A DNA stretch of 64,000 bases from an uncultured Chthonomonadaceae bacterium. Its GTDB lineage: Bacteria > Armatimonadota > Chthonomonadetes > Chthonomonadales > Chthonomonadaceae. The notes beneath the pieces are model-generated. The model saw nothing but the letters and a program-made list of their open reading frames with translations. It was not told where the DNA came from and made no database searches. The first letter of the stretch is position 1, and the number at the start of each line of letters is the position of its first letter. The position numbers and the translations under genes are program-made. The DNA is taken from the NCBI GenBank assembly GCA_963817895.1, contig CAWFQB010000002.1, positions 192,001 through 256,000 of the forward strand, written 5' to 3'. Shown piece by piece: positions 28,695-59,100 of the stretch.

Positions 28695-28979
28695 ATGCCG
28701 CGTGGTGCTCCCAGATTACGTGCAGGTGATGGAAAAAAGAACCAAGTGGGTTTGCGTGTGCGGCAACGCCGGGTGGAACTGCAACTCACTCAAGACGCCG
28801 TAAGCGCACATTTGGCGACGGCAACCGATGGAGAGTGGAGCCCCACTTTGCAAGAGATACTACACATCGAAAATGGCAGCCGTATCGTATCCGATGTTGA
28901 AGTGGTTGCTCTGGCACGCGCATTAGAGTGTGATGCGTGCTGGCTCCTGGTAGGGAATAGAGATGAGACAAACGCTTGA
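28695..28979 (+). CDS. XRE family HTH regulator
   Basis: VGLRVRQRRVELQLTQ...ILHIENGSR...ALARALE. Confidence 0.8.
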   Translation: MPRGAPRLRAGDGKKNQVGLRVRQRRVELQLTQDAVSAHLATATDGEWSPTLQEILHIENGSRIVSDVEVVALARALECDACWLLVGNRDETNA

Positions 28980-29021
28980 TTGCCCGTATGAAATGTTTTT
29001 CATACGGGCAATCAAGCGTTT
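28970..29021. repeat. 24-bp perfect inverted repeat (terminator or origin-associated)
   Basis: AAACGCTTGATTGCCCGTATGAAA-tgtt-TTTCATACGGGCAATCAAGCGTTT. Confidence 0.8.
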
Positions 29022-40943: not shown

Positions 40944-41149
40944 GTTTGCTCGTCTGACATTTGCCTTCTACACAACAGGATTGCCGTTATATTCAGACGC
41001 CGTGCAAAGATATTCCTGCACGGCGTTTGTCGGAATTTATCAGGAGGATTTTGAGTTCCGTTCAGCGAAAAGAATGCGGCGTCTTGAACCATGTTTTCCA
41101 CATTTTTATGCTGTATGGTAGTGGCTTGGACAGGAGTGAGGTACTTGTA

Positions 41150-43585
41150 TTGAGCGATGATAATTTACTACAACCTGAACTGCTCAACGAAGCCGATACT
41201 TGCCGGAAGTACGTCACGCCACGCCTGCAAGCCGCAGGCTGGGAAGCCGAGCCGCACTCGCTCGTGGAGCAGTACACCTTTACCGCGGGCCGCATCCAGA
41301 TTAGGGGCCAGAAGGCGAAGCGCAAGCCCGGCAAGCGTGCCGATTATCTACTTCGCTATACCCGTGATTACCCCATCGCAGTTGTTGAGGCAAAGGCCGA
41401 AGAATTGCCCGCCGCGCAAGGCGTTGAACAGGCGAAAGAGTACGCAGAGGTGCTTGGGCTGTATTTCGCCTATTCTACAAATGGCAAAGAAATCATTGAA
41501 TTCGACTACCTGGCAGGAACGGAACAGGTTGTTGCCGACTATCCCACCCCTGCCCAATTATGGCAGCGGCTTCGGGTAGCACGCAAAGTGACTAAAGACT
41601 CCGAGGCGGTTTTGCTGTCGCCCTCCTACCATCAGGGTGTAGGTGCAACACGCTACTATCAGGACATCGCCATCCAGCGCGTACTGGAAGCCGTCCTTGC
41701 CGGACAACGCCGGGTTCTTCTCACCTGCGCTACGGGTACTGGCAAGAGCAATATCGCCTTTCAGATTGCTTGGAAGTTGTGGAATGCGCGCTGGAACCAG
41801 ACAGGCCGCCAGGGACGCCCGCGTGTTTTGTTTATTGCTGACCGCTCGGTGTTGGTTGACGACCCTATGGACAAAATGTTCGCGCCGCTCGGTACAGCGA
41901 GACACAAGATCGAAGGCAAGGCAGAGACCGGGCGCGACATCTACTTCGCCACCTATCAATCTCTTGCCGGAGACGAGCGGCGAGACGGGTTGTATCGTGA
42001 GTTCGATCCCAACTTCTTTGACCTGGTGATTGTGGATGAAGCGCATCGAGGCAGCGCACGCGAGGATTCCAACTGGCGCGACATCCTCAACCATTTTGCA
42101 CCGGCCTATCAGTTGGGTATGACCGCCAGCCCCATACGCGATTCAAATCGCGACACCTACCAGTATTTCGGCAACCCCGTTTATACATATAGTCTCAAGC
42201 AAGGAATAGATGACGGCTTCCTCGCACCGTACCGCGTTTACCGCATCCAAACTGTCTGGGATGAGATTGGCTACCGCCCCGGCAAGGGAGCCGTAGATCG
42301 ACATGGGCAGGCTATCCCCGACGAAATCTTCAAGACCAAAGACTTCGAGCGCGTCATTGTGTTGCAGGCGCGCACGGAGGCCATTGCTCGTCACCTCTCC
42401 GACTTTCTCAAGTCCACAGATCGGTTCGCCAAAACCATCGTGTTTTGCGCGAACCAGGAACACGCGCTCGCCATGCGGCAGGCGCTTATCAATGAGAACC
42501 GCGACCTGGTAAAAACCTACCCCAACTACGTTTGTCGGGTGACGGCTGACGAGGGCGACATCGGACGGGCTCATCTGTCACGCTTTCAAGAAGTGGACAC
42601 CAAAACGCCCACAATCCTGACAACGAGCCAACTGCTCACTACGGGCGTAGATGCCCCCACTTGCAAGAATGTCGTTCTCGTGCGCCCGATTGACAGCATG
42701 GTGGAATTCAAACAGATAATCGGCAGGGGAACACGGGTTCGGGAAGACTACGGCAAACTGTTCTTCAACATTCTTGATTACGCAGGTTCCGCGAGCGAAC
42801 GCTTCGCCGACCCACAATTCGATGGCGATCCGGCCCTGCTCACTGAAATAGAATTGGACGAACACGGGCAGGCCACTGAGGAGAACATCCGCGCCGCTGA
42901 GGAGAAAGAAGCCTCTGATCCCGAAGACGAAGATGCCAATGTAGGTGAGGAGGATGCCGATGAAGGTTATACTGGCGGCTACAAAGGCGGCGGGCGACGC
43001 AAGAAGTATTATGTAGACGGCGGCATCGTTCAGATTGCCAGCGAGATTGTACAGGAATTAGACGCGGATGGTAATGTCCTGCGAGTCATGCGTCTGACCG
43101 ACTACACGGCAGACAAGATGCGGATGCTGTGCGCCACGCCCGAAGAAATGCAGCAGTCATGGAGCGACCCGGTACAGCGGGGCGAGATCGTGAACGCGCT
43201 GGAAGAACGCGGCATAGATTTTGAGGAACTGGCGCGCGTAGTGGGCAAGCCGGACGCCGATCCCTTCGACGTACTCTGCCATCTCGCCTACCAAGCGCCC
43301 CTGCTCACCCGCCGTGAGCGCGCCGACCGATTGAAGCGCAGTAAGCCCGACTTCTTTGACGCCTACGGCCCTACCGCCCGTGCCATTTTGGAAGAACTAC
43401 TGGACAAGTACGCAGAGCATGGCGTGGAGCAGTTTCAAATTCCCGATGCGCTGAAAGTGCCGCCGATTTCCAACCACGGCAACATTTCGGAGATCATAAA
43501 GGCGTTTGGCGGCGCGGAGGTGTTGAGAAGCGCGGTGATGGGATTGCAAGCCATGCTGTACGAACAGGCGGGAACCGCCAGATGA
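41150..43585 (+). CDS. hsdR: Type I restriction subunit R (EcoAI/EcoEI-like)
   Basis: ADY...VVEAK nuclease motif; ATGTGKS, DEAHRG, QIIGRGTR; TTG 41150 follows GGAGTGAGG. Confidence 0.93.
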   Translation: MSDDNLLQPELLNEADTCRKYVTPRLQAAGWEAEPHSLVEQYTFTAGRIQIRGQKAKRKPGKRADYLLRYTRDYPIAVVEAKAEELPAAQGVEQAKEYAEVLGLYFAYSTNGKEIIEFDYLAGTEQVVADYPTPAQLWQRLRVARKVTKDSEAVLLSPSYHQGVGATRYYQDIAIQRVLEAVLAGQRRVLLTCATGTGKSNIAFQIAWKLWNARWNQTGRQGRPRVLFIADRSVLVDDPMDKMFAPLGTARHKIEGKAETGRDIYFATYQSLAGDERRDGLYREFDPNFFDLVIVDEAHRGSAREDSNWRDILNHFAPAYQLGMTASPIRDSNRDTYQYFGNPVYTYSLKQGIDDGFLAPYRVYRIQTVWDEIGYRPGKGAVDRHGQAIPDEIFKTKDFERVIVLQARTEAIARHLSDFLKSTDRFAKTIVFCANQEHALAMRQALINENRDLVKTYPNYVCRVTADEGDIGRAHLSRFQEVDTKTPTILTTSQLLTTGVDAPTCKNVVLVRPIDSMVEFKQIIGRGTRVREDYGKLFFNILDYAGSASERFADPQFDGDPALLTEIELDEHGQATEENIRAAEEKEASDPEDEDANVGEEDADEGYTGGYKGGGRRKKYYVDGGIVQIASEIVQELDADGNVLRVMRLTDYTADKMRMLCATPEEMQQSWSDPVQRGEIVNALEERGIDFEELARVVGKPDADPFDVLCHLAYQAPLLTRRERADRLKRSKPDFFDAYGPTARAILEELLDKYAEHGVEQFQIPDALKVPPISNHGNISEIIKAFGGAEVLRSAVMGLQAMLYEQAGTAR

Positions 43586-44154
43586 AAATCAACTTTGGTG
43601 TCTTCGGCAAGAAAGACGAATTCGCCATCGAGATTCCTGAGCCTTTTGCGGCGGCACCTGACGAACCAGAACATACAAGTGCCACTGGCATCATAGCGGA
43701 TGTCGAGGAAACCCACAGTCTTGCAAAGGCATTCCGTCAGGCAATTCAGAAGTGTGACCAAGATTTGCTGCCCATAAACTTTGAACGTTTTCCAAATGGA
43801 GCCTGCGGCGTGACCTCGCGCCTGCTGCAAAAGTACCTGCGTGAGCGTGATCAGGGCGAGTTTAATTACATCTATGGAATACGGACGTGGAAATCCCAGA
43901 GTTGGCGCTCTCACGCCTGGTTGGAACAGAACGGCTTGATTGTGGACATCACTGCGGATCAATTTTATGATATGCGACGGGCTGTGTTGGTTACAACGGA
44001 TCGCGCATGGCATACTAAGTTTCGTAAACGACGAATTTCTCGTGGCACAACATGGGAAAGGGGCAGTTGTTCGGCAGACGAAAATCTGCTTACCACCTAT
44101 CCGCACATTGCCACCCTCGCGGATGAAATTCGAGAAAAAAGTAGGAAGGATTGA
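43582..44154 (+). CDS. Hypothetical protein with papain/transglutaminase-like Cys-His-Asp pattern
   Basis: FPNGACG...SHAWLE...IVDITADQF; 4-nt overlaps with hsdR and hsdM. Confidence 0.7.
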   Translation: MKINFGVFGKKDEFAIEIPEPFAAAPDEPEHTSATGIIADVEETHSLAKAFRQAIQKCDQDLLPINFERFPNGACGVTSRLLQKYLRERDQGEFNYIYGIRTWKSQSWRSHAWLEQNGLIVDITADQFYDMRRAVLVTTDRAWHTKFRKRRISRGTTWERGSCSADENLLTTYPHIATLADEIREKSRKD

Positions 44155-46040
44155 CAGAGCACATGCCTTCGAGAAAAAAGGAGCAAATGGAACTGGCAGG
44201 GATGCCCGCAAAGCCCATACGTGCTAAACGCGAGGAAAAACAGGTGACCACGGCGCAGCGTCTTGGCAGTCTCGTCAAGTCCGCGCGCGACCTCATGCGT
44301 AAAGATAAGGGACTTTCCGGGGACGCTGACCGGCTGCCGCAACTCACCTGGATTATGTTCCTCAAGTTCCTAGACGATTTGGAACGAACGCGCGAGGAGG
44401 CGGCTCCGCTATCCGGGGAGGTGTTCCGCCCTATTCTGGAAACTCCCTACCGCTGGCGCGATTGGGCGGATCGTGAGAGTGGGCCAACCGGCGACGACCT
44501 TTTGGATTTCATCGGCGGGCAGGAAGTTGTAATTGGCAAGGATGCGACTGGGGCGGACATCAAAAAGCCGGGGCTGTTTCGGTATTTGCGCGGCTTTCAA
44601 GGCAGTGATAATCCGCAACGCGCCGTCATCGGCAACATCTTCCGAAATGTCCAGAACCGCATGAACGACGGGTATCTCCTTCGCAGTGTTTTGAACCTTG
44701 TAGATGGGATTCATTTCGACAGCAGCGAGGAAATTCATACCCTGGGCCGGTTGTACGAGTCCATGCTCAAGGAGATGCGTGATGCAAGTGGCGACGCCGG
44801 GGAGTTTTATACGCCGCGCCCGGTCGTAAGGTTCATGGTCGAGGTGATGAACCCTCGCTTGGGCGAAACTGTGTACGATCCTGCCTGCGGCACAGGCGGC
44901 TTCCTGAGTGAGGCGTTCCTCCACCTCAAGCAGCAGTGCCGCAGGGCAGAGGATAACTCTACATTGCAGGCGCGCAGCATCCTGGGCGGTGAGGCCAAAC
45001 CGCTGCCGTATCTGCTGTGTGAAATGAATTTGCTGTTGCACGGGTTGGACGCGCCGGACGTGCGCTTCGACAATAGCCTCAAGGTACGGCTGGGCGAAAT
45101 TGGTGAACAAGAGCGCGTGAGCGTGGTACTTACCAACCCACCTTTCGGCGGTGAGGAGGAGGCGAGTGTGCAGAACGGCTTTCCAGCCGACAAGCGCACA
45201 TCGGAGACAGCCCTGTTGTTTCTGCAACTCATTATGAGGAAATTGCATCGTAGTCCTGAGCCGGGGCGAGCAGGCGTGGTTGTGCCCAACGGCATCTTGT
45301 TTGCGGACGGCGTTGCGGCGCGCATCAAGGAGGAACTGCTCACGGAGTTCCGCCTGCATACCATTGTGCGACTGCCCGTTGGTGTCTTCGCGCCGTACAC
45401 CAGCATCCCCACGAACCTGCTGTTTTTCGAGGCGGGCGCACCCACAACAGAAATCTGGTATTACGAGCAGCCTTTGCCCGAAGGCCGCAAATCCTACTCT
45501 AAGACGCAGCCCATGCAGTACGAGGAGTTTGCCCCGCTCTTAGCCTGGTGGGATGTGCGCGAGGAGAATGAGCGCGCCTGGCGTGTGGATTGGACACAGA
45601 CCTATGAGACGGCGCGCACGGCGGCACAACCGCACTGGGACGCCGCGCAGGAAGCGGAAGCCAAAGCCCGCGAGTATGGCGCGACAGCGAAGGAGGCGGG
45701 TGAGCAGATGCAATCGGCGCAACGTCTTCTGCAATCCGGGATGCTGCCGCAGGAGGAGCGCGCTCGCATACAGGCTGAAATCGAGAACCAGCGTGCCCGA
45801 CGCGATCAGGCCCAAGAAATCGAACGCAGCCTTCGGGAGCGCGTCCGCGAGGAGCAGACAAAAGGCGATGCCCTGTATTGGCCCATCTACAACCTGGATC
45901 GCAAAAATCCGAGTCGTGCTGAGGACTTTGAACATTTGCCGCCTGAACAACTGATTGGCGATATTCTGAATAAAGAACTGCAAATTATCTCTTTGATGCA
46001 AGAGATCGAGCGAGCGCTTTTGGTAGGGGTAACAGCATGA
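44151..46040 (+). CDS. hsdM: Type I methyltransferase subunit M with coiled-coil insert
   Basis: GEFYTPR, DPACGTGGF, TNPPFGG. Confidence 0.95.
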   Translation: MTEHMPSRKKEQMELAGMPAKPIRAKREEKQVTTAQRLGSLVKSARDLMRKDKGLSGDADRLPQLTWIMFLKFLDDLERTREEAAPLSGEVFRPILETPYRWRDWADRESGPTGDDLLDFIGGQEVVIGKDATGADIKKPGLFRYLRGFQGSDNPQRAVIGNIFRNVQNRMNDGYLLRSVLNLVDGIHFDSSEEIHTLGRLYESMLKEMRDASGDAGEFYTPRPVVRFMVEVMNPRLGETVYDPACGTGGFLSEAFLHLKQQCRRAEDNSTLQARSILGGEAKPLPYLLCEMNLLLHGLDAPDVRFDNSLKVRLGEIGEQERVSVVLTNPPFGGEEEASVQNGFPADKRTSETALLFLQLIMRKLHRSPEPGRAGVVVPNGILFADGVAARIKEELLTEFRLHTIVRLPVGVFAPYTSIPTNLLFFEAGAPTTEIWYYEQPLPEGRKSYSKTQPMQYEEFAPLLAWWDVREENERAWRVDWTQTYETARTAAQPHWDAAQEAEAKAREYGATAKEAGEQMQSAQRLLQSGMLPQEERARIQAEIENQRARRDQAQEIERSLRERVREEQTKGDALYWPIYNLDRKNPSRAEDFEHLPPEQLIGDILNKELQIISLMQEIERALLVGVTA

Positions 46041-47189
46041 GCATAGGGTGGCCTCTCGTTCCATTGGCAAAAGTCGCTCGTCCTATCTCTCGCGTAGTGT
46101 CCGTTACATCTGGGGAAACCTATCGCACGATTGGGGTAAGGTGGTGGGGAGAGGGAGCGTATGAACGGCAAACCATAGACGGCTCCCAGACTGCCGCAAA
46201 AACCCTGAACATCGTCCGCGAAAACGATTTGATCATTAACAAAATATGGGTGCGACATGGTTCGACCGCAATTGCGTCTGCTGCGGTGGATGGATGTGCG
46301 GCTTCCGGCGAGTTTCCGATGTTTGAACTTGATCCAAGTCGTGTTATGCCACGTTGGATACACTGGTTGACCAAAATGCGTCCCTTCTGGGATAGTTGTG
46401 ACCGACTTTCTCAAGGAACAAGCGGCAAGAACCGCATACGTCCAGAGTTATTTCTCACAATCTTAGTTCCACTTCCGCCCCTACACGAACAGCAGCGCAT
46501 CGTGGCGCACATTGAGGAGTTGGTGGGCAAGATTACGCAAGCGGGGGAACTGAGACGTGAAAGCCGGAGAGATATGAGGGCTGCTCTACTGGCTTCCTAC
46601 TCGGCGATCATTAAAGACGCCTGCCGATTCACCATGTCAACTGTCGCTCCGCTGGTGCGCCGTCCCATCAATGTTATCGAAGAAACACTTTACCCGGAAC
46701 TTGGAATTCGGTCGTTTGGTAAAGGTACTTTCCATAAATCTCCAGTAAGGGGGAGTGAAATCGGCTCCAAACGGCTGTTTGGTATCGAACCTGGCGATCT
46801 GTTGTTCAACATTGTTTTCGCATGGGAGGGCGCAGTAGCCATTGCAAAACCAGAAGATGTTGGGCGCGTAGGTTCCCATCGCTTTCTGACTCGTGTTGTA
46901 AATCCCGATTTGGCGTTAGCCTCTTATCTCTGTTTCCACTTTTTGACCGAAAGAGGACTGGAACAACTACCAGCAAGCATCTCCCGGTGGCGCAGGAAGA
47001 AATCGCACTCTCGGCCTCAAAACATTGGAGAAAATTGAAGTACCGATTCCAACTCTTGACGCACAACGAACATTCGATAGATTGTTGGCGCGCAGTGACG
47101 CAATTGAAGCGTTGCAAAAAGAGGCCGATGTAAAAATAGAAGCCCTTGTACCTTCGTTGCTCGACCTGGCGTTCAGGGGCGAACTTTGA
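46037..47189 (+). pseudogene. hsdS: Type I specificity subunit S; +1 frameshift near 46970
   Basis: VPLPPLHEQQRIV; the shifted frame gives SPGGAGRNRTL...IEVPIP...LLDLAFRGEL-stop. Confidence 0.85.
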
Positions 47190-47249: not shown

Positions 47250-47282
47250 TTTCCAGTGTGCAAAAATTTTGCACACTGGAAA
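47250..47282. promoter_or_regulatory. 16-bp perfect palindrome between hsdS and the XRE gene (operator or terminator)
   Basis: TTTCCAGTGTGCAAAA-a-TTTTGCACACTGGAAA followed by TGC-TATAAT. Confidence 0.6.
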
Positions 47283-47352
47283 TTTTTATGCTATAATAGT
47301 CCAGACAATGAAGTTGTATTCAGAATCGGCAGAACGAGGAGACTAAACGCCC

Positions 47353-47874
47353 ATGAAAAAGAATTCAGCAGGCGGGTCGCCCCAGTCGGCCTCGGTCGTC
47401 AGTCTGGAAGATTTGGGGAAACTGATCCGCGAAAAGCGTAAGGCTGCGGATTTGACATTGGAACAGGCCGCGCAACAAGCAGGTGTCAGCGCGGCAACTC
47501 TTTCTCGATGGGAACGACAGGGAAGATTGCAAGAAGGCGTTGATGGTACAGCACGAACGATGCGCACCCCCGACATGCAGACCCTTGCCGCTATTACCCG
47601 CTGGCTCGGAGTGTCCATAGATAGGGTTAGCACTTTCGAGACACCACCGCCCGCGCACAGTGTGGTGCATCACGCAGGCGAAGCCACGCCTGACATTGTA
47701 GAAGCCCATCTAAGAGCAGATCGCAACCTTGACCCGGACACAGCCGGGGCGCTGTCGCGGATGTTTCGGGTCGCCTATGAGCAGTTTGCCAAGTTGCAGG
47801 CTGCTGCGCCGTCCGAAGATCGTCCAGAAAGGAAACCGGATAATGAGCCGGATGACGCCACCAAAACACAATGA
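47353..47874 (+). CDS. XRE family HTH regulator
   Basis: LTLEQAAQQAGVSAATLSRWER; C-terminal VEAHLRADRNL. Confidence 0.88.
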   Translation: MKKNSAGGSPQSASVVSLEDLGKLIREKRKAADLTLEQAAQQAGVSAATLSRWERQGRLQEGVDGTARTMRTPDMQTLAAITRWLGVSIDRVSTFETPPPAHSVVHHAGEATPDIVEAHLRADRNLDPDTAGALSRMFRVAYEQFAKLQAAAPSEDRPERKPDNEPDDATKTQ

Positions 47875-48499
47875 GGACAAGGAAAGTAGCAATCGCGCGC
47901 CGCGTATAGTGACGACTGGATTGCGCGAGTTTCTGCGACGGATCGAGGAGAACGGACTGGCTCTGCGGCAGAAGGCAGGTATTGGGCCGGAAGAACGACT
48001 GTATCCGCGCAGACTGGCGACAGAGTTCAAGTTGCACTTCATGGAACTCAACGATATGGAAGCGCTTGCGCCCGCAGACCGGGCACACATCGAAAGCAGT
48101 GATGCCAGGAAGTGGTCGGGCAGCGGTCTTCCGCTTCCCAATGACGAGTGGTTGATTATCTTGCACCCCTGCCAAACACCGGAGCGCGCCACCGTGACCA
48201 CGATGGAAGAAATAGCGCATGTTCACTATAGACACAAACCTTGTCGCCTGGTAACAGATGCAGCCGGGGTGACGCATCGGGAGTACGACCCGGAAATTGA
48301 GGACGAAGCCTACTGGACAGCATCCGCAGCCCTATTGCCTTCTAAAGCCCTGGCGCGGCGCGTGTATAAAGGCGTGACCACGCAAGCCATTGCCGCGGAG
48401 TTCGGCGTCAGCACACAACTGGTAGAGTTCCGCATTAAGACACTGGGGTTGTGGAGTGACCACAAAGCGCGCCATCGGGAGGAGGCAGTCACCGCATGA
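47843..48499 (+). CDS. ImmA/IrrE-family metallopeptidase (EExxH variant)
   Basis: R...T.MEEIAH, EDEAYWTASAALLP, IAAEFGVS..LV.FR. Confidence 0.8.
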   Translation: MSRMTPPKHNEDKESSNRAPRIVTTGLREFLRRIEENGLALRQKAGIGPEERLYPRRLATEFKLHFMELNDMEALAPADRAHIESSDARKWSGSGLPLPNDEWLIILHPCQTPERATVTTMEEIAHVHYRHKPCRLVTDAAGVTHREYDPEIEDEAYWTASAALLPSKALARRVYKGVTTQAIAAEFGVSTQLVEFRIKTLGLWSDHKARHREEAVTA

Positions 48500-49479
48500 A
48501 AGTGTCTATTGAGGAGTTCAGTGCCTTATTATCCACGCCCTTGAGGGAACTTGGGGCGAAGCAGGTCGCTCGTTCCTCCTACCATGCGGATCAAAATGGT
48601 TACCGGATGGCAACATCTCCATCCAGTACAGATGGATTATTGCAAACTCGGCTGCGAATGTCGTTTTCGGCGGCGGAGCGGGAAGCGGTGAGATTGGTGG
48701 CACAGAACCGCCCGCTCCCGTTGCGGGAGTTCGACCAAATACCAATGTACAACCGCGATCTGCTCCGTCAGGCCAAATTGATCGCACCCTATCTGGCGGG
48801 TAAGACAGTCGCCTTTGTGGGAGACATTGATAGCACTAGCCTGATGCTGGGGATGCTAACCCTCTGTAGCAACCCGTCGCCTGCGCGTATGGTACTGCTC
48901 GACTTCGATGCCCGCCTGCTCACGGCGGCAAGGAAAATGGCGTCTCGCTATGGGTTTTCACGTCTGCTGGAAACCCGGATGCACAATTTCTTTGATCCTG
49001 TGCCCGCTGACCTGATTGGTACCTGTGATTGGTTTTATACCAACCCACCTTTCGGCTCGAACAATCAAGGGGCGAGCGCACAATTGTTTATAGCACGCGG
49101 ACAGGAACTCTGCAAAGAGGAAGGGGCAAGCGGCTGTATTATCATGCCATACGACACGAACAGAGCGTGGACTACGCAGACATGGCTGGCAACGCAACGG
49201 TTCCTTGTAAATGGCGGATGGGGTGTACGCGAAAAAGTGGATGGTATGCACCGTTACCATTTGGATGATGACCCGGAACTGACCTCCTCCATGATCTTGG
49301 TAGATGCAATCATGGGAGGATTACTGGACGCTGCATCTTACGCAGGGCGGCGCGTTCCTTTTGATGAAATCCCTTTGTTCTATGGGCGTAGTGTGCAGCC
49401 GCCGTATCCGCGCTACATTCGAGAGGACGGCAGTTTCGACATGGATTGGAGCGTCGAGGAAGGCGGTTACAGCATATAG
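48496..49479 (+). CDS. BpsA/DUF43-like SAM-fold transferase
   Basis: RP.PLREFDQ, VAFVGDIDSTSL, DFDARL, FYTNPPFG. Confidence 0.7.
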   Translation: MKVSIEEFSALLSTPLRELGAKQVARSSYHADQNGYRMATSPSSTDGLLQTRLRMSFSAAEREAVRLVAQNRPLPLREFDQIPMYNRDLLRQAKLIAPYLAGKTVAFVGDIDSTSLMLGMLTLCSNPSPARMVLLDFDARLLTAARKMASRYGFSRLLETRMHNFFDPVPADLIGTCDWFYTNPPFGSNNQGASAQLFIARGQELCKEEGASGCIIMPYDTNRAWTTQTWLATQRFLVNGGWGVREKVDGMHRYHLDDDPELTSSMILVDAIMGGLLDAASYAGRRVPFDEIPLFYGRSVQPPYPRYIREDGSFDMDWSVEEGGYSI

Positions 49480-49480
49480 C

Positions 49481-49960
49481 ATGGAAGAACAAATGGATAA
49501 CTCAACCCGCCGAACGTGGATTTTTCAAGGAAATCCTGATAAGTACCGTCTCGAAAATGCGCTGCAAAACGAAAAGGAAGAATGGTGGAATCTGAATCAA
49601 CACGCCAAGAGTGTGCGCGCCGGGGATCGCGCTTTGATCTGGATTTCTGGAGAGAAGGCAGGGATTTATGCGATTGGCAGTGTGCTGACCGCCCCGGAAG
49701 TCCGGCCTGACTCCACGACTGGCACAGGTTACTGGTACAACCCCACCGAAGGTCTAAAAGCGAAGTCCCGTGTCCGTGTGCGCTACGAACGTCTGCTGTT
49801 CAAACAGCCATTGCGAAAGGCATATTTACAAGCCGACCCCAACCTGTGGGATATGACCATTCTCCACATGCCGCGCGCGACAATCTTTGCGGTCAGCGCG
49901 GATGAATGGCAGGCTATTGAAGCCTGGTTGGATGAGAATACAGACGCCGAAGTATTATAG
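49481..49960 (+). CDS. EVE domain protein
   Basis: TWIFQGNPDKY, VRAGDRALIW, GIYAIGSV, VSADEWQAI. Confidence 0.8.
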   Translation: MEEQMDNSTRRTWIFQGNPDKYRLENALQNEKEEWWNLNQHAKSVRAGDRALIWISGEKAGIYAIGSVLTAPEVRPDSTTGTGYWYNPTEGLKAKSRVRVRYERLLFKQPLRKAYLQADPNLWDMTILHMPRATIFAVSADEWQAIEAWLDENTDAEVL

Positions 49961-50131: not shown

Positions 50132-52471
50132 ATGCCACAGACCACAAATCAGACCAACAACACCAGCCTACTTCTGAATATCGCTCCGGTAGAGTTTCAG
50201 GATAGGGAGATCGCAGTGGGCGTATTCGCCTATGCTGACAATCAACAATTGCGCACCCTACGAAGCGAATACCGAGAGACACACCTTTTCCGACGTGAAC
50301 GCAACAATGAGCAAGACGAGATTTTGTGTGTTCCCCTCATTTCAGACGTTGAACCACTGGGTGACAAGACACGAACCATTCGGCTTTACAATCATCTTCA
50401 CCTTTGTGCGGCGCTCGTTCGCGAGGCCATGCTTGAATTTCTCTATAAGCATGGCATCCAGAGTTTTGGGTATGATCCAATCGAGTACGTGGTCAACGCA
50501 GTCGGTGATGATCTCCTGCGCGCCTCGCTACCTTCTGGCGTGGTGGCACCCTCATGGATTTCCGTTAAGGTACTCAACGCATTGACAATCCGCCCGATGC
50601 ACATGGAACGCCAAGCGCCGTTTGTGGGTGTCGCGCTTGACTTTCACGCACAGCACCTTGTGAATGTTCCCTGCGATCAGTTGATTGCAATGGGGTTGAA
50701 CATCAAGGGATTATACGTCAGTCAGGCATTGCCCGAATCAGACCCGCGTGTGTTTCCGCGTGAGCGACTGTTGGGGCGCGTTCAGTCTGTGCAGAATGGA
50801 AAATTGTCGCTTTCAGATGTGCGCCATGACGATGGCCCGGACTGTGTAGAGGCCAGTGCCGTATACCTTGAACCACGTCACGACGCCTTCGATGTATGTC
50901 TGAACCATGCGTTCAAGCAGCGTGTCAGGCAAGTAAGAGACAACCTACACCGCAACCTGCACCAAATTCAAAGTGGCCCAGATAAGTTGGATCGGCTTCG
51001 CAAACGCATGGAAACGCTAACTAACCGCAAGACACCATTGGAAATGCTGCCTGGCATTCCGTTCTCGTTCCAGCCATTTCTCGCGGAGGGGACAAGCAAA
51101 ACGTTTCCGCTCGTGAACCACGCCAAGCGCCCCGTCTACGTGTTCGATCCTACTGGTACGCGCACGGCAGAGTATAATGACCCCGGCATCACCCAATACG
51201 GCCCATACAGTGCCTACGGCAACCTGTTCACGCCGAACCTACCCAACATGGTCGTGATCTGCCAGAAGAACAAAAAGGGACTCGTCGAACAGTTTCTCGC
51301 CAAGTTCAAGACAGGCATCGCCGGGTCGCGTTTTGAGACCGGATTTGTGGGTAAATACCGGTTGGCAGATGTCAACTTCGAGTTTTTCCTTACGGAGACG
51401 GAGAGTGCGGAAGACTATGAGGAAGCGGCAAACCGCGCCATTCACGCCTACGCCAAAGCCGACAAGCGCATCCACTTAGGCTTTGTGCAAATAGAAGACC
51501 GGTATCGTGAATTGCGTGGAGGGACAAATCCCTATTTGGTAACAAAGGCTGCTTTTTTGTCACACCAAATCCCTGTTCAGGAGTTCACCATCCAGAAGGC
51601 GACACAGGAAGACAAATATCTCTCGCATATTCTGAACACGATAGGGCTGGCGGTATATGCCAAACTTGGCGGAACGCCCTGGCTCATGCCATCCAACCGT
51701 GTGATCGCTCACGAACTGGTTTTCGGATTGGGCAGCGCGCAGGTGAATGAAGGACGGTTTGGAGAGCGACGCAGATATGTGGGCATCACCACGGTGTTCA
51801 GTGGAGATGGCAATTACCGTCTCGCCAATCTGTCGCAGGCAGTGCCTCTAAGGAGGTATGAGGAAGCGTTGCTCGACTCCCTGCGGGAAACCGTAACTAA
51901 AGTGCGCGCCGACAATAACTGGCAACCCGGCGACACTGTACGCCTGATATTCCACGCATTCAAACCCATGAAATATGCTGAGATCGACGCCGTAACTGCG
52001 TTGATGGATGAACTTGGCGACTACGAAGTAGAATTCGCCTTTCTACACATTGCCGAGGAACACCCGTACCTCCTGTTCGACCCGGCGCAGAAGGGTGTGT
52101 ATTCCTACGAAATCCGGGCCAATAAAGGCGTATATGCCCCTATGCGCGGCATATACTTCCGCCTTTCCGAACACGAAACTCTGATGTCGCTTGTCGGCGC
52201 GCGTGAAGTTAAAAGACCAGAAGATGGTCTGCCACGTCCAGTGCTTTTGAAACTACATCCACGCTCCACGTTCGCGGATCATATCTATCTCGCCCGCCAA
52301 GTTTTTATGTTTTCCTGTCACTCATGGCGAAATTTTACGCCTGGCGCACACCCAGTTACGATTCATTATTCATCGCTGATAGCACGTATGCTCGGCGAAT
52401 TGGAAACAGTGCCGACGTGGAATCCAAACGTTATGTATGGAAGGATTGGCGAAACAAGGTGGTTCCTATAA
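50132..52471 (+). CDS. ago: Long-B prokaryotic Argonaute, catalytically inactive (RsAgo-like)
   Basis: MID motifs NPYLVTK, IPVQ, YAKLGG; PIWI ELVFGLG, LIFHAFK, PVTIHYS lack DEDX; ends RWFL. Confidence 0.93.
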   Translation: MPQTTNQTNNTSLLLNIAPVEFQDREIAVGVFAYADNQQLRTLRSEYRETHLFRRERNNEQDEILCVPLISDVEPLGDKTRTIRLYNHLHLCAALVREAMLEFLYKHGIQSFGYDPIEYVVNAVGDDLLRASLPSGVVAPSWISVKVLNALTIRPMHMERQAPFVGVALDFHAQHLVNVPCDQLIAMGLNIKGLYVSQALPESDPRVFPRERLLGRVQSVQNGKLSLSDVRHDDGPDCVEASAVYLEPRHDAFDVCLNHAFKQRVRQVRDNLHRNLHQIQSGPDKLDRLRKRMETLTNRKTPLEMLPGIPFSFQPFLAEGTSKTFPLVNHAKRPVYVFDPTGTRTAEYNDPGITQYGPYSAYGNLFTPNLPNMVVICQKNKKGLVEQFLAKFKTGIAGSRFETGFVGKYRLADVNFEFFLTETESAEDYEEAANRAIHAYAKADKRIHLGFVQIEDRYRELRGGTNPYLVTKAAFLSHQIPVQEFTIQKATQEDKYLSHILNTIGLAVYAKLGGTPWLMPSNRVIAHELVFGLGSAQVNEGRFGERRRYVGITTVFSGDGNYRLANLSQAVPLRRYEEALLDSLRETVTKVRADNNWQPGDTVRLIFHAFKPMKYAEIDAVTALMDELGDYEVEFAFLHIAEEHPYLLFDPAQKGVYSYEIRANKGVYAPMRGIYFRLSEHETLMSLVGAREVKRPEDGLPRPVLLKLHPRSTFADHIYLARQVFMFSCHSWRNFTPGAHPVTIHYSSLIARMLGELETVPTWNPNVMYGRIGETRWFL

Positions 52472-53682
52472 GCAAAACAAGCAGTATTCTTTTCAGCGAT
52501 GTACGGGCAACACTGGCACGGGTGGCACAACAAGCCGAAGGCCGCAATGATGCCGTAGAAGCCGCTTGCGCATGGTTGCTCCCCGGTCTGGATACAGTCT
52601 CAAGACTGGCAACAATGGCAGAACACGCGGCTACCTGTAAAGGGCAGATGCGCTCCTACAAACAGGTTGCCGTCTTAGGGTATGCGGCAAGTCTGTTGCT
52701 GGACAAGTTCCAACAGCAGGCTGCACTCGAAAATGGTCTGAAATGGCTTTCTGGCTTGCCTGCTATGAGTGCGGGCGCACTTATGGGCTTCGCCACTGAT
52801 CCCGTCTCGTTGCTTGGTATCGCACTCGGAACAAGATGCGCTTGTGATGAAGTAAAGTCTGCCGTACGGAATTGGGCTGCTAAATTTCTTTCTGACGAGT
52901 ATAACGCTCTGGGTACGGAACCGTGGCACAGTTGCTTGCTGGCGGTCACAGCACAGATTTTAACAATAGAACCTGTGTTACCCATTCCCATTGAGACGGA
53001 AGCAGCGTGTGTGCGGGTCGCCATGCGATCAAAAGGATTATTGCCTGCAAACTCCTCGAATGAAGCGGACGAGGAGTTTGTCTTAACACTTCTGAAAGAA
53101 AGCCGTGCTACAGAAACGGATTGCACCCATGCTGCCATTCAGATGGTCGCACTCGACTGGATTAGGCGCAAAGCGCCAACCGTTATACCAGCGCGCATGA
53201 CGCCTGAAGATGTCGTCAGTCTGTTGAAACATACGGAGTTCGCCCTCAAGCGTTGGACTTGGGAGGACAAGCCCAAAACCACAACAGGAATCGCTCGACA
53301 GTGGCACATAGACAATGAGTACCATTTGCAAAATCTGCTGTGGACACTCCTCGCCCCCATATTTCCTGACCTCACAGACGAGGAATATACCATTCAACTC
53401 GGCTCTAAAAATCCTCGCATTGATCTTGGCATTCCTTCCCTCAAATTGATCATTGAAGCAAAATTCATGCGCATGGGCGACCCGCCGAAAAAGTTTATTG
53501 AGGAGATTGCGGCAGACGCCAGCCTTTATTTGGTGGAAGGGGCGCGGTACAACCAGATTGTCGCTATTATTTGGGATGACACAGCACGCACAAACCTGCA
53601 CACAGAGATGATACGCGCTATGAACCAGATTGATGGTGTGCTGGATGCCGTAGTTGTGTCCCGCCCAGGAAACTGGACATGA
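52459..53682 (+). CDS. Argonaute-associated PD-(D/E)XK nuclease (DpnII/MboI-like C-terminal domain)
   Basis: NEYHLQNLL...EE...RIDL...IIEAK; probable GTG start overlapping the end of ago. Confidence 0.8.
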   Translation: MVPISKTSSILFSDVRATLARVAQQAEGRNDAVEAACAWLLPGLDTVSRLATMAEHAATCKGQMRSYKQVAVLGYAASLLLDKFQQQAALENGLKWLSGLPAMSAGALMGFATDPVSLLGIALGTRCACDEVKSAVRNWAAKFLSDEYNALGTEPWHSCLLAVTAQILTIEPVLPIPIETEAACVRVAMRSKGLLPANSSNEADEEFVLTLLKESRATETDCTHAAIQMVALDWIRRKAPTVIPARMTPEDVVSLLKHTEFALKRWTWEDKPKTTTGIARQWHIDNEYHLQNLLWTLLAPIFPDLTDEEYTIQLGSKNPRIDLGIPSLKLIIEAKFMRMGDPPKKFIEEIAADASLYLVEGARYNQIVAIIWDDTARTNLHTEMIRAMNQIDGVLDAVVVSRPGNWT

Positions 53683-53860: not shown

Positions 53861-55231
53861 CTAAACGCTGTGAACGACATCAGGTTTCGCTGAAGTTGCA
53901 ACGCCACTGGTCATGGCTTGTGTGTTGGTCAGGTGGGCGGCTTCGGCGAGCCAGCCGGTCAAAGGTGCTGCGATGTCAGTTGTATTGTGGTTTTCGCGCC
54001 TCAACCTGATTTGGACATGAACGCAATTGCCACGCCATTCATATTGACTACAAAACAGGGCTGTCACCTTTTCTCGATATGCACTGACCATGAACTCGGC
54101 GACGGCACGCACAAACACTGCTCGGTCAGTACCTTTATAGAGGTAGATGGAAGGCAAAAGGCGTATTGTCCACTGTCTGGCTGGCAATAGTTCAATGGTG
54201 TAAAGCCCCGTGTTCGGATTATGCTCGAAGTCCAGCGCAAACCGTGCTGGCTCACAGTTGAGTAGATTGAGCGTTTGGAGTAGCCCTTGATCCAGAAACA
54301 GCCTTGCCGCATCCGGCTTGGGGGTGGGCTTGGGCCGCGTTGGGTGCGCGGCTTCTGCAAGCCAGTGCGCGAGCGCTCCGCGAGGTGGCGTCTCGTCGTC
54401 TGTATTGCGGGACATAGATGCGAAACTTATTGTGTCGTCGTGGAACTTGCTGGCGTAGGGGTAACGCGCATACAAGTCGGCGATGGCGCGTGCAAACATC
54501 GCCGGATCATCGCCCTCGTACATTACTTCAAACGCTTCTGGTGACATTGGTTGCAGACGCGACGCGTGCAACCTCTGATTATCGCGTACTTTGATGCAGA
54601 ATAGCCCATCCTTTGTACCGATTCCATTGATATGATGATGCACAAATTTGATGTAAAAATCCGCATCAGGATGGTCAAGTCCAAGCGTTTTCAGAAAAGC
54701 CACGATGCCGCGCCTTCGTAGTCTGTGGGGGCGGTTCTTCTCCTCACGTATCTGCCTCTTGAGCGAAACAGCCAGTTGAAAGTCCGGGCTTCCAGGGGCC
54801 AGATCAATGGCCTCTTTGCGCTTCTCCAACGGCTGGATATAAGGAGCCGCTCCTCTTTTTATTTTTGCAAAAGGATCGGCATTTTCGCAGACAGAACAAA
54901 CATTGCTGCATCCAAATCCCCCGTCTTGCACGACATCGCAGCGAGTAATGTAGGGCGAAGCCATAAGTCTTTGAAACAAGTACATCATTTCCATCCAAGA
55001 CAAGTTCTCAAGCCGCAGAAAGGGCGTGGAAACCGAACACATGCCCGGCTCACCGACAACATCTGACCTTCCCCCTTTCTTTCGTTCCACACTGAAGCGA
55101 ATCGGCGTCTTGGCCTCTTGCATGGCGTCATAAACCAGGCTGCGTCCATCCTCGGACAAGCGATAGCGTGTGGGGTTGATGGCCCCGGTTTCATCTCGCA
55201 GAGAGTTGAGCAAACGATGAATGCGTCCCAT
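53861..55231 (-). CDS. Hypothetical protein (paralog 1)
   Basis: About 456-aa ORF, clearly similar to 57756-59100. Confidence 0.75.
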   Translation of the reverse strand: MGRIHRLLNSLRDETGAINPTRYRLSEDGRSLVYDAMQEAKTPIRFSVERKKGGRSDVVGEPGMCSVSTPFLRLENLSWMEMMYLFQRLMASPYITRCDVVQDGGFGCSNVCSVCENADPFAKIKRGAAPYIQPLEKRKEAIDLAPGSPDFQLAVSLKRQIREEKNRPHRLRRRGIVAFLKTLGLDHPDADFYIKFVHHHINGIGTKDGLFCIKVRDNQRLHASRLQPMSPEAFEVMYEGDDPAMFARAIADLYARYPYASKFHDDTISFASMSRNTDDETPPRGALAHWLAEAAHPTRPKPTPKPDAARLFLDQGLLQTLNLLNCEPARFALDFEHNPNTGLYTIELLPARQWTIRLLPSIYLYKGTDRAVFVRAVAEFMVSAYREKVTALFCSQYEWRGNCVHVQIRLRRENHNTTDIAAPLTGWLAEAAHLTNTQAMTSGVATSAKPDVVHSV

Positions 55232-55370
55232 TTTCAAACTCCTTTTGCCGTTTGTTGTAATCTGCCCGCGTGGGCAGGCGCGCTACAGCCATAGAAATGA
55301 CCACCTTGCCATTAGGTGGTCATTTCTGGCATCTTGTATTGTGGTATGCGGTGCAACGCCGCCCTTTGCA

Positions 55371-57755: not shown

Positions 57756-59100
57756 TCATCGTTGATCCGACTCACTTGCCGTTGGAAGCCGCGCTGCCTC
57801 CTCAAGCCAGCCCGTTAAAGGTGCTTTGATGTCGGTGATATGGTAGTTTTTGTGCCTCAACCTGATTTTTACATGAACGGTGTTGCCAGCCAAATCAGAA
57901 TGTCCGCAGTACAGGGATGTAACCTTCTCTCGATAGGCGCTTTCCATGAACTCAGCCACGGCGCGCACAAACACCGCTCGGTCAGTGCCATTATAGAGGT
58001 AGATGGAAGGCAGAACCCGTATTGTCCACTCGCGGGCAGGCAATAGTGTAATGGTGTAAAACCCCGTTTTCGGATTATGCTCGAATTCCAAAGCAAAACG
58101 TGCTGGTTCACAGTTGAGTAGATTAAGGGTGTGAACTAATCCCTCTACCAGAAAGCAGGCTCGCCATATCCGGCTTCGGGGCGGGCTTGGGCCGCGTTGG
58201 TTGCGCGGCCTCGGCAAGCCACTGTGTGAGCATTCCGGGTGGCGGCATCTCGTCGTCTATGGAGACGCGAGACGAAGTGAATGTTAGTTCGCAGCCATGT
58301 GTATCAAGGGAATGCTGGTGGAATTTGCTGGCGCAGGGATAATGTGTATGAAGGTCGGCGATGGCGCGGGCAAACATCGCGGGATCATCGCCCTCATAGA
58401 GCATGACAAACGCTTCGGGCGAATTTGGTTGCAGACGCGATGCACGTATCTGGTGGTTATCGCGTACCCTGATGTTGAACACCCCATCCTTTGTGCCGAT
58501 CTCATCGATGTGATGGTGCAGGAATCCGATGGAGAAATCTGCGTCCGGTTGATCGAGTCCAAGCGTTTGCAGAAAAGCCATGATGCCGCGTCGTCGTAGC
58601 CTATGGGGGCGGTTCTTCTCCTCGCGCACCTGCTTTTTGAGCGAAACGGCAAGTTGAAAGTCCGCGCTTCCAGGAGTGAGATCAATGGTATCCTGGCGCG
58701 TTCCCCACTTTCCTCCGCTGGGAACATACTGTGTGGAGGCGATCAACGGATTAGGGGTTTCTGTCACCGTTATTCTTGGCACAAAACCCTGTATGCTACC
58801 TGAGTGTATGTTGCAGCGGGTGATGAAGGGAGATGCCACTATTTGTTGGTGCAAGTAGACAACTTCCAGCCAAGAGAGATCGCGCAGGCACATCCCCGGA
58901 CACGAAATGGAGTAACCACAGGGGACAGGCCGTATGTCACGTTCGATGCGATGTTTAATGTGAAAGTGGAGGGGTGTCTTCGGCGGTAACGTCGCGTCAT
59001 AAAGCAGGCTGCGCCCATCCCCGGACAAGCGATAGCAGGTGGGGTTGACAGTGCCGGTTTCATCTCGCAGATAATTGAGCAAACGATGGATGCGTCCCAT
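57756..59100 (-). pseudogene. Hypothetical protein (paralog 2); frameshift near 58150
   Basis: ORFs 58123-59100 and 57756-58217 together align to 53861-55231. Confidence 0.75.

Follow-up and report, generated by a model that had tools for sequence, protein, structure and literature searches.

A conserved and apparently unnamed four-gene cassette that couples a divergent BpsA-type transferase to an EVE domain

Introduction

BpsA is the branched-polyamine synthase of thermophiles, which transfers aminopropyl groups, and domains of the EVE family bind modified bases of DNA or RNA. Here, a cassette of four genes is described in which a divergent relative of BpsA is directly followed by an EVE domain. 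The cassette was found in a stretch of 64,000 nucleotides (the window) of an uncultured Chthonomonadaceae bacterium of the phylum Armatimonadota (assembly GCA_963817895.1, contig CAWFQB010000002.1, positions 192,001 to 256,000). Together with a palindrome that precedes it, it occupies positions 47250 to 49960 of the window and encodes a helix-turn-helix (HTH) protein of the XRE family, an M78 metallopeptidase, the transferase and the EVE domain. The cassette is real and conserved, and it apparently represents an unnamed system.

Counterparts of its enzyme and of its regulators have been described. In BpsA, residues D159 and D160 position decarboxylated S-adenosylmethionine (dcSAM), and D225, E259, Y290 and Y316 activate spermidine; an acidic cluster at the C-terminus is described as the aminopropyl carrier in a relay (PMC12979288). 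For spermidine synthase, it is reported that the exchange of the Asp that binds the amine of dcSAM for Ile leads to methyltransferase activity (PMC3725402). In the regulators CapH and DdrO, the C-terminal dimer domain is the substrate of the partner peptidase (10.1101/2022.04.27.489752; 10.64898/2026.05.16.725639), and the GAF domain of the peptidases CapP and IrrE forms part of a groove that binds single-stranded DNA (10.64898/2026.05.16.725639).

The nearest predicted systems are the (PIN)-GNAT-EVE, ASCH and AAA_17 modules, which are described as predicted base-modifying toxin-antitoxin or restriction-modification (RM) accessory modules and are experimentally uncharacterised; GNAT-EVE systems sit with AAA_17 and PIN genes, beside type I RM and DUF499/SNF2-type systems (PMC7641849). 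The same source predicts that fusions of a DCD domain and a methyltransferase methylate DNA that is already modified, and VcaM4I combines EVE and HNH domains (PMC7897488). Full-text literature searches yielded no description of the four-gene combination; an earlier bioinformatic mention is possible, supplements being outside the search. The main text of PMC7641849 does not mention spermidine, polyamine, DUF43 or a peptidase, and none of the transferase terms occurs in PMC10853773 and PMC12839542.

Organization and conservation of the cassette

The cassette spans 2.7 kb, is self-contained and consists of four tightly coupled open reading frames (ORFs) on the plus strand. These encode an XRE-family HTH protein, which is a repressor candidate (47353..47874; HTH_3, E 1.2e-10), an IrrE/ImmA-like M78 metallopeptidase with the motif EExxH (47843..48499; Peptidase_M78, E 2.6e-14), a BpsA-derived class I transferase dependent on S-adenosylmethionine (SAM) or dcSAM (48496..49479; BpsA_C, PF01861, E 4.6e-17) and a stand-alone EVE domain of the PUA superfamily (49481..49960; EVE, PF01878, E 1.9e-22). 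The start of the peptidase ORF overlaps the end of the XRE gene by 32 nt, with an alternative ATG at 47852. The peptidase and transferase genes meet in an ATGA overlap, and a single nucleotide separates the transferase gene from the EVE gene, which has an alternative ATG at 49493. All four genes score above the Pfam cut-offs for HTH_3, Peptidase_M78, BpsA_C and EVE; in NCBIfam, no cassette gene scores above cut-off. The motifs named in the original prediction are all present (EExxH as MEEIAH, GDID as VGDID and NPPF as YTNPPFG), as are the palindrome with 16-bp arms and the TATAAT ahead of the genes. That the combination was not recognised as a named system agrees with PADLOC, which gave weak matches only (best E 3e-07 for the HTH protein, 4e-05 for the peptidase and 0.0095 for the transferase, with no EVE match).

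Relatives were collected from GTDB genomes (20 loci) and from metagenomes (77 loci), which gives 97 related loci. The order HTH, peptidase, transferase, EVE is found in all 14 close GTDB loci. Among the 56 loci with at least 45% transferase identity, near-duplicates included, every locus with at least 300 nt of downstream sequence has EVE behind the transferase (44 of 44), every locus with at least 500 nt upstream has an EExxH peptidase ahead of it (45 of 45), and an HTH gene was found upstream in all but one of the loci whose flank there reaches at least 1300 nt (35 of 36). Gene order was scored with profiles built from the same loci, which makes these counts partly circular; the genes of the Deinococcota-type cassettes and of locus L015 were confirmed by Pfam. 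The neighbourhood check is positive, and the four genes form a linked unit across relatives, as had been proposed.

Cassettes were found in Armatimonadota, Chloroflexota, Actinomycetota and Deinococcota, and their distribution is patchy. The nearest relative, with an 80% identical transferase, belongs to a Chthonomonadaceae genome of the same genus; within the phylum, the clade occurs in 3 of 401 genomes, one of the two congeners gave no match to it, and 4 of the 251 genomes in the class of genome G012 carry it. In a quick version of the tree with 85 rows, which omits near-duplicates and fragments of 21 loci, the EVE-linked enzymes cluster as a single group (Shimodaira-Hasegawa-like approximate likelihood ratio test, 97), which is separated from canonical BpsA by a branch of 2.78. 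Of the 97 loci, 5 have a disrupted transferase frame, through an insertion sequence (IS) in L015 and as split frames in L021, L051, L090 and L096. A viral origin was considered and rejected: no relative was found in viral_contigs, and the phage records gave one weak, unannotated match (27% identity, in a 4.3-kb record). Plasmid matches numbered five, all of them 33-35% identical, and the three that were examined belong to the non-EVE branch.

The transferase

Databases label these transferases 'bis-aminopropyl spermidine synthase family', and the protein of the window scores 62.5 bits against BpsA_C (PF01861), for which the cut-off is 27. Its AlphaFold2 model has a predicted local distance difference test score (pLDDT) of 87, with about 45 disordered residues at the N-terminus. 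The best fold match is BpsA (5xnc; Z 25.6, root-mean-square deviation 3.0, 234 aligned residues), followed by the rRNA N6-methyladenosine methyltransferase METTL5 (Z 19.4) and by PH1948 (Z 18.6). The class I fold and the motif IV, NPP(Y/F), are shared with METTL5/TrmN-like nucleic-acid amino-methyltransferases; motif I, however, is GDxD as in BpsA and not the glycine-rich GxGxG of the METTL5/TrmN-like enzymes. NPPY marks enzymes that act on base or amide nitrogens.

The functional residues of BpsA were mapped by sequence alignment on 5xnc and 6j27, not by structural superposition. The position of D159 holds Asp in none of the 68 close homologues; it is Ile in the window (GDID) and Gly in all 29 sister-branch proteins. 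D225 corresponds to N183 in the window and to Asn in 68 of 68 close homologues, and the motif NPP[Y/F/W] is present throughout the homologues. E259 aligns to A224, with Ala or Pro in the clade; a change of E259 to Arg had been considered and is wrong, as the invariant Arg aligns one position earlier. The C-terminal DEE was found in none of 51 EVE-linked proteins, whereas all four canonical proteins have it.

Seven of 17 cassette hosts gave a match to the gene speD, which was weak in two of them, compared with 12 of 12 genomes with a canonical-type bpsA gene (with GDDD in at least 10 of the 12). In the nine canonical-type genomes of this phylum, speD is located within about 1.5 kb of bpsA. The genome of the window, which is 81% complete, gave no speD match. 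A search for the class 1A SAM decarboxylase was uninformative, with no match anywhere, the controls included.

Compared with BpsA, the clade has the same fold, the RP..FDQ motif and the equivalents of D158, D160 and Y290. It differs by GDxD instead of GDDD, by NPP[Y/F] instead of DP(P/V)E and by the lack of E259 and of the C-terminal acidic carrier; it is a separate long-branch group, in which speD is never adjacent and often not found. On sequence grounds, the transferase is not a member of BpsA (EC 2.5.1.128), and the deviations GDID and NPPF that had been noticed within a BpsA/DUF43-like enzyme are part of these residue losses. The Ile at the D159 position parallels the Asp-to-Ile switch of spermidine synthase, which is an analogy and no proof. 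For the donor, the balance tips slightly towards SAM rather than dcSAM, and methyl transfer is indistinguishable from aminocarboxypropyl transfer. The acceptor is predicted, with somewhat more assurance, to be a nucleobase, either in a polymer or in a free nucleotide.

Several arrangements were observed among the relatives of the transferase. Two divergent paralogues lie back to back in an Acidobacteriota genome (L016:2630-4917), and P0179 is a fusion protein of a radical SAM domain and a transferase. In L073, L074, L075, L077 and L089, distant transferases cluster with an Asn-synthase-like amidotransferase, a radical SAM/SPASM protein and an HhH-GPD glycosylase, and some of these clusters add a guanylate kinase, MazG-like, Nudix or PUA-like gene; by their gene content, they are candidates for an undescribed base-modification pathway. 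An operon of speD, a transferase with GDDD and NPPY, Ham1, a kinase and a B12 radical SAM gene is found in a Woesearchaeota genome (L020:7569-11363) and in L094:535-4253, and its composition looks like aminopropylation of a nucleotide.

The EVE domain and a PUA-like replacement

The EVE protein scores 80.2 bits against PF01878 and is the only EVE of its clade in the genome. W36 and W85 are invariant at pocket positions. In weak alignments to 2ar1 and 2eve (E 0.0008 and 0.002), W36 corresponds to the Trp that precedes the DG motif of these structures (W26 in 2eve), and W85 to Y82 of 2eve. Five proteins were found in which transferase and EVE are fused. No fusion longer than 773 amino acids was found, which is weak evidence.

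Of 41 more distant loci, 39 have enough flanking sequence; EVE follows the transferase in two of them, and a different protein of about 190 amino acids is encoded nearby in 28. This replacement protein has no Pfam match and no sequence match in the PDB. Its model (pLDDT 92) retrieved 18 chains at Z of at least 2, nearly all of them of the YTH, EVE or McrB-N types, with a best Z of 3.7, and the weak top rows of Foldseek agree with this assignment. In the Atlas, 15 of 30 matches are clusters labelled Pua-like, although the label applied to 12% of the members in the one cluster inspected. Judged by these models, the family (e.g., L018:1255-1815, with the motifs FMKVGxHAGE and FWGYGG) is probably a new PUA/YTH-like reader. 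Frequent companions in the more distant branches are an M78 peptidase of their own, an AAA_17 kinase or a gene that is PIN-like by eye. One sub-branch has the protein of about 190 amino acids behind an M78 peptidase with HExxH and a small protein with a hydrophobic tail, and there is no HTH gene. From the EVE domain, the replacement protein and the HExxH peptidases, it follows that the transferase family is paired with two PUA-type domains and repeatedly with M78 peptidases.

The original prediction of a cassette made of a writer and a reader is borne out in part. The fusions and the swap to another PUA-like protein support the coupling of the two components; an order in which the writer marks and the reader then reads is not favoured. 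Since no effector lies downstream of EVE and since EVE is fused to the enzyme, the arrangement in which the reader aims the writer is preferred. A PUA-superfamily reader with an aromatic pocket that is joined to a catalytic domain is also found in VcaM4I (PMC7897488); the cassette, however, has no nuclease, and its catalytic partner is derived from BpsA. The latter also distinguishes it from the DCD-methyltransferase fusions, which join a PUA-superfamily reader to a catalytic domain as well (PMC7641849).

With the GNAT-EVE systems, the cassette shares a group-transfer enzyme that is coupled or fused to a C-terminal EVE, partners of the PUA superfamily, a wider family that includes AAA_17, PIN and XRE genes, and possibly a proximity to type I RM and DUF499/SNF2-type systems; in the window, a type I RM operon is directly upstream. 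In contrast to these systems, the enzyme is a SAM/dcSAM transferase of the BpsA fold and not a GNAT acetyltransferase; there is no ASCH match and no AAA_17 gene in the operon of the window, and an M78 peptidase and an XRE protein with an operator pair are fixed parts. AAA_17 kinase, PIN-like and M78 genes also accompany distant transferase relatives; PIN-like and AAA_17 genes, however, occur mostly in the non-EVE branches, AAA_17 being present in one EVE-type locus and in several of the sister branch. The cassette is not a member of the (PIN)-GNAT-EVE/ASCH family and, by analogy, may function most like it.

Predicted regulation by the XRE protein and the peptidase

Sequence inspection and comparison with related loci revealed a perfect inverted repeat with 16-bp arms and a 1-nt centre ahead of the XRE gene (47250..47282). 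It contains two operator-like 14-bp boxes of the form TT(T/G)CA-N4-TG(A/C)AA (47250-47263 and 47269-47282), the second of which covers the -35 region of a sigma70-type promoter-like site on the plus strand (47269..47297; 10 of 12 matches). The -10 element TATAAT (47292-47297) is extended by a TG (TG-n-TATAAT, 47289-47297), and related loci carry sites of the type TG-n-TA(T/C)(A/T)AT at the equivalent place. The palindrome is scored as a terminator, too, for the RM operon upstream of it, and may serve both roles. Perfect palindromes are common, with 11 distinct ones with arms of at least 11 bp in the window and 237 with arms of at least 14 bp in the genome, and the idea that the palindrome is remarkable in itself was rejected. 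A search with the 13-nt arm returned just the two arms and chance-level matches. The feature of the palindrome that exceeds chance is the pair of 14-bp boxes, which is conserved ahead of related cassettes.

The consensus of the boxes was read by eye from 11 loci, and 27 XRE-type loci were scored for the pair after four near-duplicates and one short locus had been dropped. The pair beats all 100 shuffles in 16 of the 27 loci and at least 95 of 100 in 20; nothing was found in 7. Of the 16 scored loci outside the consensus set, 7 beat all shuffles and 11 at least 95, the arms of three of these loci having been seen beforehand. In the Deinococcota-type loci, which have a different HTH protein, none of nine beats all shuffles. 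The genome holds three box pairs at no more than two mismatches. It is likely that the XRE protein binds the operator-like boxes, and given the position of the pair over the -35 region in 16 to 20 of the 27 loci, it probably represses its own promoter, in agreement with the predicted control by an XRE-type repressor. A second operator-like box pair is contained in a palindrome with 24-bp arms at 28970-29021 of the window, behind a short XRE-like reading frame. This palindrome precedes an ORF of 675 amino acids (29234-31261), which has no Pfam match and is primase-polymerase-like by eye, and 3.9 kb of sequence in this part of the window recur on contig C4 of the same genome at 87.5% identity; the region is possibly a second XRE target or part of a mobile element.

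The XRE gene adjoins the gene of the M78 peptidase, and the HTH protein has a conserved C-terminal module, as in CapH/CapP and DdrO/IrrE as well as in ImmR/ImmA. This 'LRAD' module is conserved in 32 of 32 XRE-type and in 8 of 11 Deinococcota-type HTH proteins and is likely a dimerisation/cleavage domain. The best solved relatives of the peptidase are IrrE and CapP, with which it shares the catalytic Glu, the second His, the third-ligand Glu and an alignable linker HTH region. In contrast to CapP, IrrE and ImmA, the first His is replaced by Glu: the EExxH motif, which had already been noticed in the window, was found in 49 of 51 clade members and was not located in the other two, whereas the M78 peptidases of the sister branch have HExxH in 12 of 12 cases. 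The protein of 218 amino acids ends past the linker HTH, where the alignments to IrrE and CapP stop, and it lacks a GAF domain. A further difference concerns gene orientation, as capH and capP are divergent from the operon under their control (10.1101/2022.04.27.489752; 10.64898/2026.05.16.725639), whereas the cassette genes are all co-directional. Judged by sequence features, the cassette is not a member of CapP/IrrE proper. Because the LRAD module travels with the EExxH peptidase in both types of HTH protein, it is likely the substrate of the peptidase, and by analogy with CapH and DdrO, we consider it reasonably probable that the peptidase cleaves the C-terminal module of the XRE protein. 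Induction by DNA damage, as originally proposed, is conjectural. The Deinococcota-type cassettes (L010-L014, L044, L045, L050, L052, L107 and L108) start with DUF6932 and a different HTH protein, which also ends in an LRAD module; the nine of these loci that were scored have no operator pair.

Genomic context

In the window, the cassette is flanked by a type I RM operon directly upstream (40961-47189) and by a pair of class II Argonaute and nuclease genes downstream (50132-53682). To assess the neighbourhood more generally, genes within about 4.5 kb were compared with PADLOC at E 1e-20 for 21 cassettes (23 were picked and two dropped for size) and for 15 of 16 control regions (7 speD loci, 2 arbitrary stretches and 6 canonical bpsA loci). 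Neighbours of the RM, Druantia, DISARM or Hma type were found in 9 of the 21 cassette loci and in none of the 15 controls; this category was set after the data had been seen, and four weak mad2 methyltransferase matches in the controls were not counted. The hsdS gene of the upstream RM operon (46037-47189) is frameshifted near 46970. Contigs of two independent runs are one base shorter at this site, so that the frameshift is an assembly error or a recent indel. The locus of the congener (L002) keeps only the tail of hsdS before the cassette, behind an IS. Between hsdR and hsdM, an ORF of 190 amino acids (43582-44154) gave faint matches to AdoMet_dc (E 0.025), YunG (E 0.036) and lasso B2 (E 0.02).

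The downstream genes were confirmed as a class II prokaryotic Argonaute (pAgo) of the long-B type (50132-52471), which is encoded on the same strand as the cassette, and an adjoining Aga_Helical-REase/DpnII-MboI nuclease (52468-53682). Their layout is that described for BPAN systems (PMC10620215). The suggestion that the cassette also controls this operon was not borne out. Neither pAgo nor its nuclease was found in the 97 related loci, many of which are short, and no pAgo was matched among 40 relatives, one of which is the cassette-bearing genome from the same genus. The gap between EVE and pAgo has no operator box, the best operator-like site there having three mismatches, and a related contig that covers transferase and EVE diverges from the window after 49932. 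The pAgo was therefore rejected as a part of the cassette, and by their gene neighbourhoods, the cassette genes do not appear as a conserved part of the BPAN long-B pAgo-nuclease locus. Further downstream, the ORFs 53861-55237, 57756-58217 and 58123-59100 are paralogous and have long segments in common; two of them were scanned and have no Pfam match, and the group is probably part of a mobile element. Elsewhere in the same genome, contig C4 carries a dense tRNA array of at least 14 genes in 2 kb (about 227900-229800).

Possible functions of the cassette

Gene order, linkage, fusions, folds, residue changes, the boxes over the promoter and the patchy distribution were observed directly. From these, the cassette is tentatively predicted to be a mobile, repressed accessory module whose EVE domain steers a SAM-dependent transferase towards modified nucleic acid, an explanation that, taken as a whole, stands at somewhat less than an even chance. 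The XRE protein would hold the operon off by repressing its own promoter, and the M78 peptidase would lift this repression by cleaving it. EVE, whose pocket aromatics are intact, would recruit the transferase to nucleic acid with a base modification already in place, and the transferase would add a SAM-derived group to a base amine. This would harm the invader or the cell, the cassette probably serving as an accessory module for defence or as a toxin; that it takes part in a conflict with invading DNA is, taken by itself, somewhat more likely than not. In an unlikely variant, the descendant of a polyamine synthase would be a nucleic-acid 'over-writer' that EVE or the YTH-like protein guides to bases modified by phages or by RM systems, and a bulky aminopropyl or aminocarboxypropyl group would block replication or translation. 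If true, this would be modification-dependent restriction by a new base chemistry and without a nuclease, switched by an EExxH peptidase.

Several observations weigh against an EVE-guided transferase acting on nucleic acid. The EExxH motif may mean that the peptidase is catalytically inactive. The replacement protein is assigned to the PUA type on low Z-scores, and its comparison with EVE by hhalign gave no similarity. Any PADLOC match taken together was found in 11 of 21 cassette loci and in 9 of 15 controls, which does not separate the two, and 12 of the 21 cassette loci have no RM-like neighbour. With a median net charge of -2 to -5, the core of the enzyme is not basic, and BpsA is still by far the best match to its fold (Z 25.6). 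The equivalents of D158, D160 and Y290 and the FDQ motif are retained, and beside the Y290 equivalent lies an acidic loop, YxLDDD, which is conserved in the clade (60 of 68; HxYxLDDD in its longer form) and might be a binding site for a polyamine or the carrier of an aminopropyl group. Two NPPY relatives, one of them archaeal, keep GDDD directly behind speD, so that NPPY alone does not exclude dcSAM. Most speD-negative cassette hosts are incomplete metagenome-assembled genomes, and a congener has a divergent speD with an ESH motif. The match to BpsA in fold and sequence, the retained residues, the DDD loop, the NPPY relatives beside speD and the speD matches in 7 of 17 hosts would all suit an enzyme that still transfers aminopropyl or methyl groups to amines and, under stress, produces an unusual polyamine for DNA protection or chemical defence, with EVE as an ancillary component. 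This reading is nevertheless rather unlikely, as D159, D225, E259 and the C-terminal carrier cluster are lost, speD has no match in 10 of the 17 hosts and is never beside an EVE-type cassette, and the gene for a base reader in 44 of 44 loci is left unexplained.

An equally doubtful possibility is that the transferase modifies a free nucleotide of the mono- or triphosphate pool, which would be processed by a kinase or pyrophosphatase and would then enter DNA or signal to the EVE or PUA-like reader. Relatives cluster with AAA_17 or guanylate-type kinases (11 loci in one cluster) and with MazG-like genes (6 loci), Nudix, Ham1, HhH-GPD glycosylase, Asn-synthase-like and radical SAM genes lie near others, MazG-like genes follow the Deinococcus cassettes, and a radical SAM-transferase fusion exists; among the EVE-type loci, however, a kinase follows in L035 only, there is no effector to answer the mark once read, and the fusion to EVE fits targeting better than downstream reading. 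NPPY is also a motif of HemK-type protein methyltransferases. The cassette might accordingly be a selfish module of the toxin-antitoxin kind without an anti-phage role, in which the transferase modifies a protein (a Gln or Lys amine, as HemK-like enzymes do) or host RNA; this is improbable, and so, to the same degree, is the neutralisation of the transferase by EVE or by an inactive peptidase that such a module would involve. The HemK match is non-significant (E about 0.6). The DUF6932-HTH pair at the start of the Deinococcota versions, the five broken transferase frames and the 12 loci without RM-like neighbours would fit such a module, but the split frames may be assembly errors, and the retention of an EVE with an intact pocket, swapped elsewhere for another PUA-like domain, points to nucleic acid. 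Least probable is joint control, with the XRE/peptidase pair also governing the long-B Argonaute-nuclease operon as one system. The two operons share a strand across a gap of 171 nt, and because no terminator-like site was called in this gap, read-through into pAgo is possible in this genome; the absence of pAgo and nuclease from the 97 loci, many of them short, and from 40 relatives including the congener with the 80% identical cassette, the three mismatches of the best site in the gap and the differing sequence of the related contig after 49932 stand against a single system.

The cassette thus draws attention to a branch of enzymes that is labelled as a polyamine synthase yet lacks the residues of that reaction and travels with two kinds of modified-base reader domains. 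Its EExxH peptidase, found throughout the clade, and its conserved operator pair make it a variant of the CapH/CapP switch without the GAF domain. An enzyme that only makes an unusual polyamine would still add a new and regulated activity of the BpsA type beyond the canonical family. Should it act on nucleic acid, the BpsA fold would have been repurposed, possibly for a new base modification, and the cassette would provide a small and testable example of the predicted conflict modules that combine EVE with a group-transfer enzyme.

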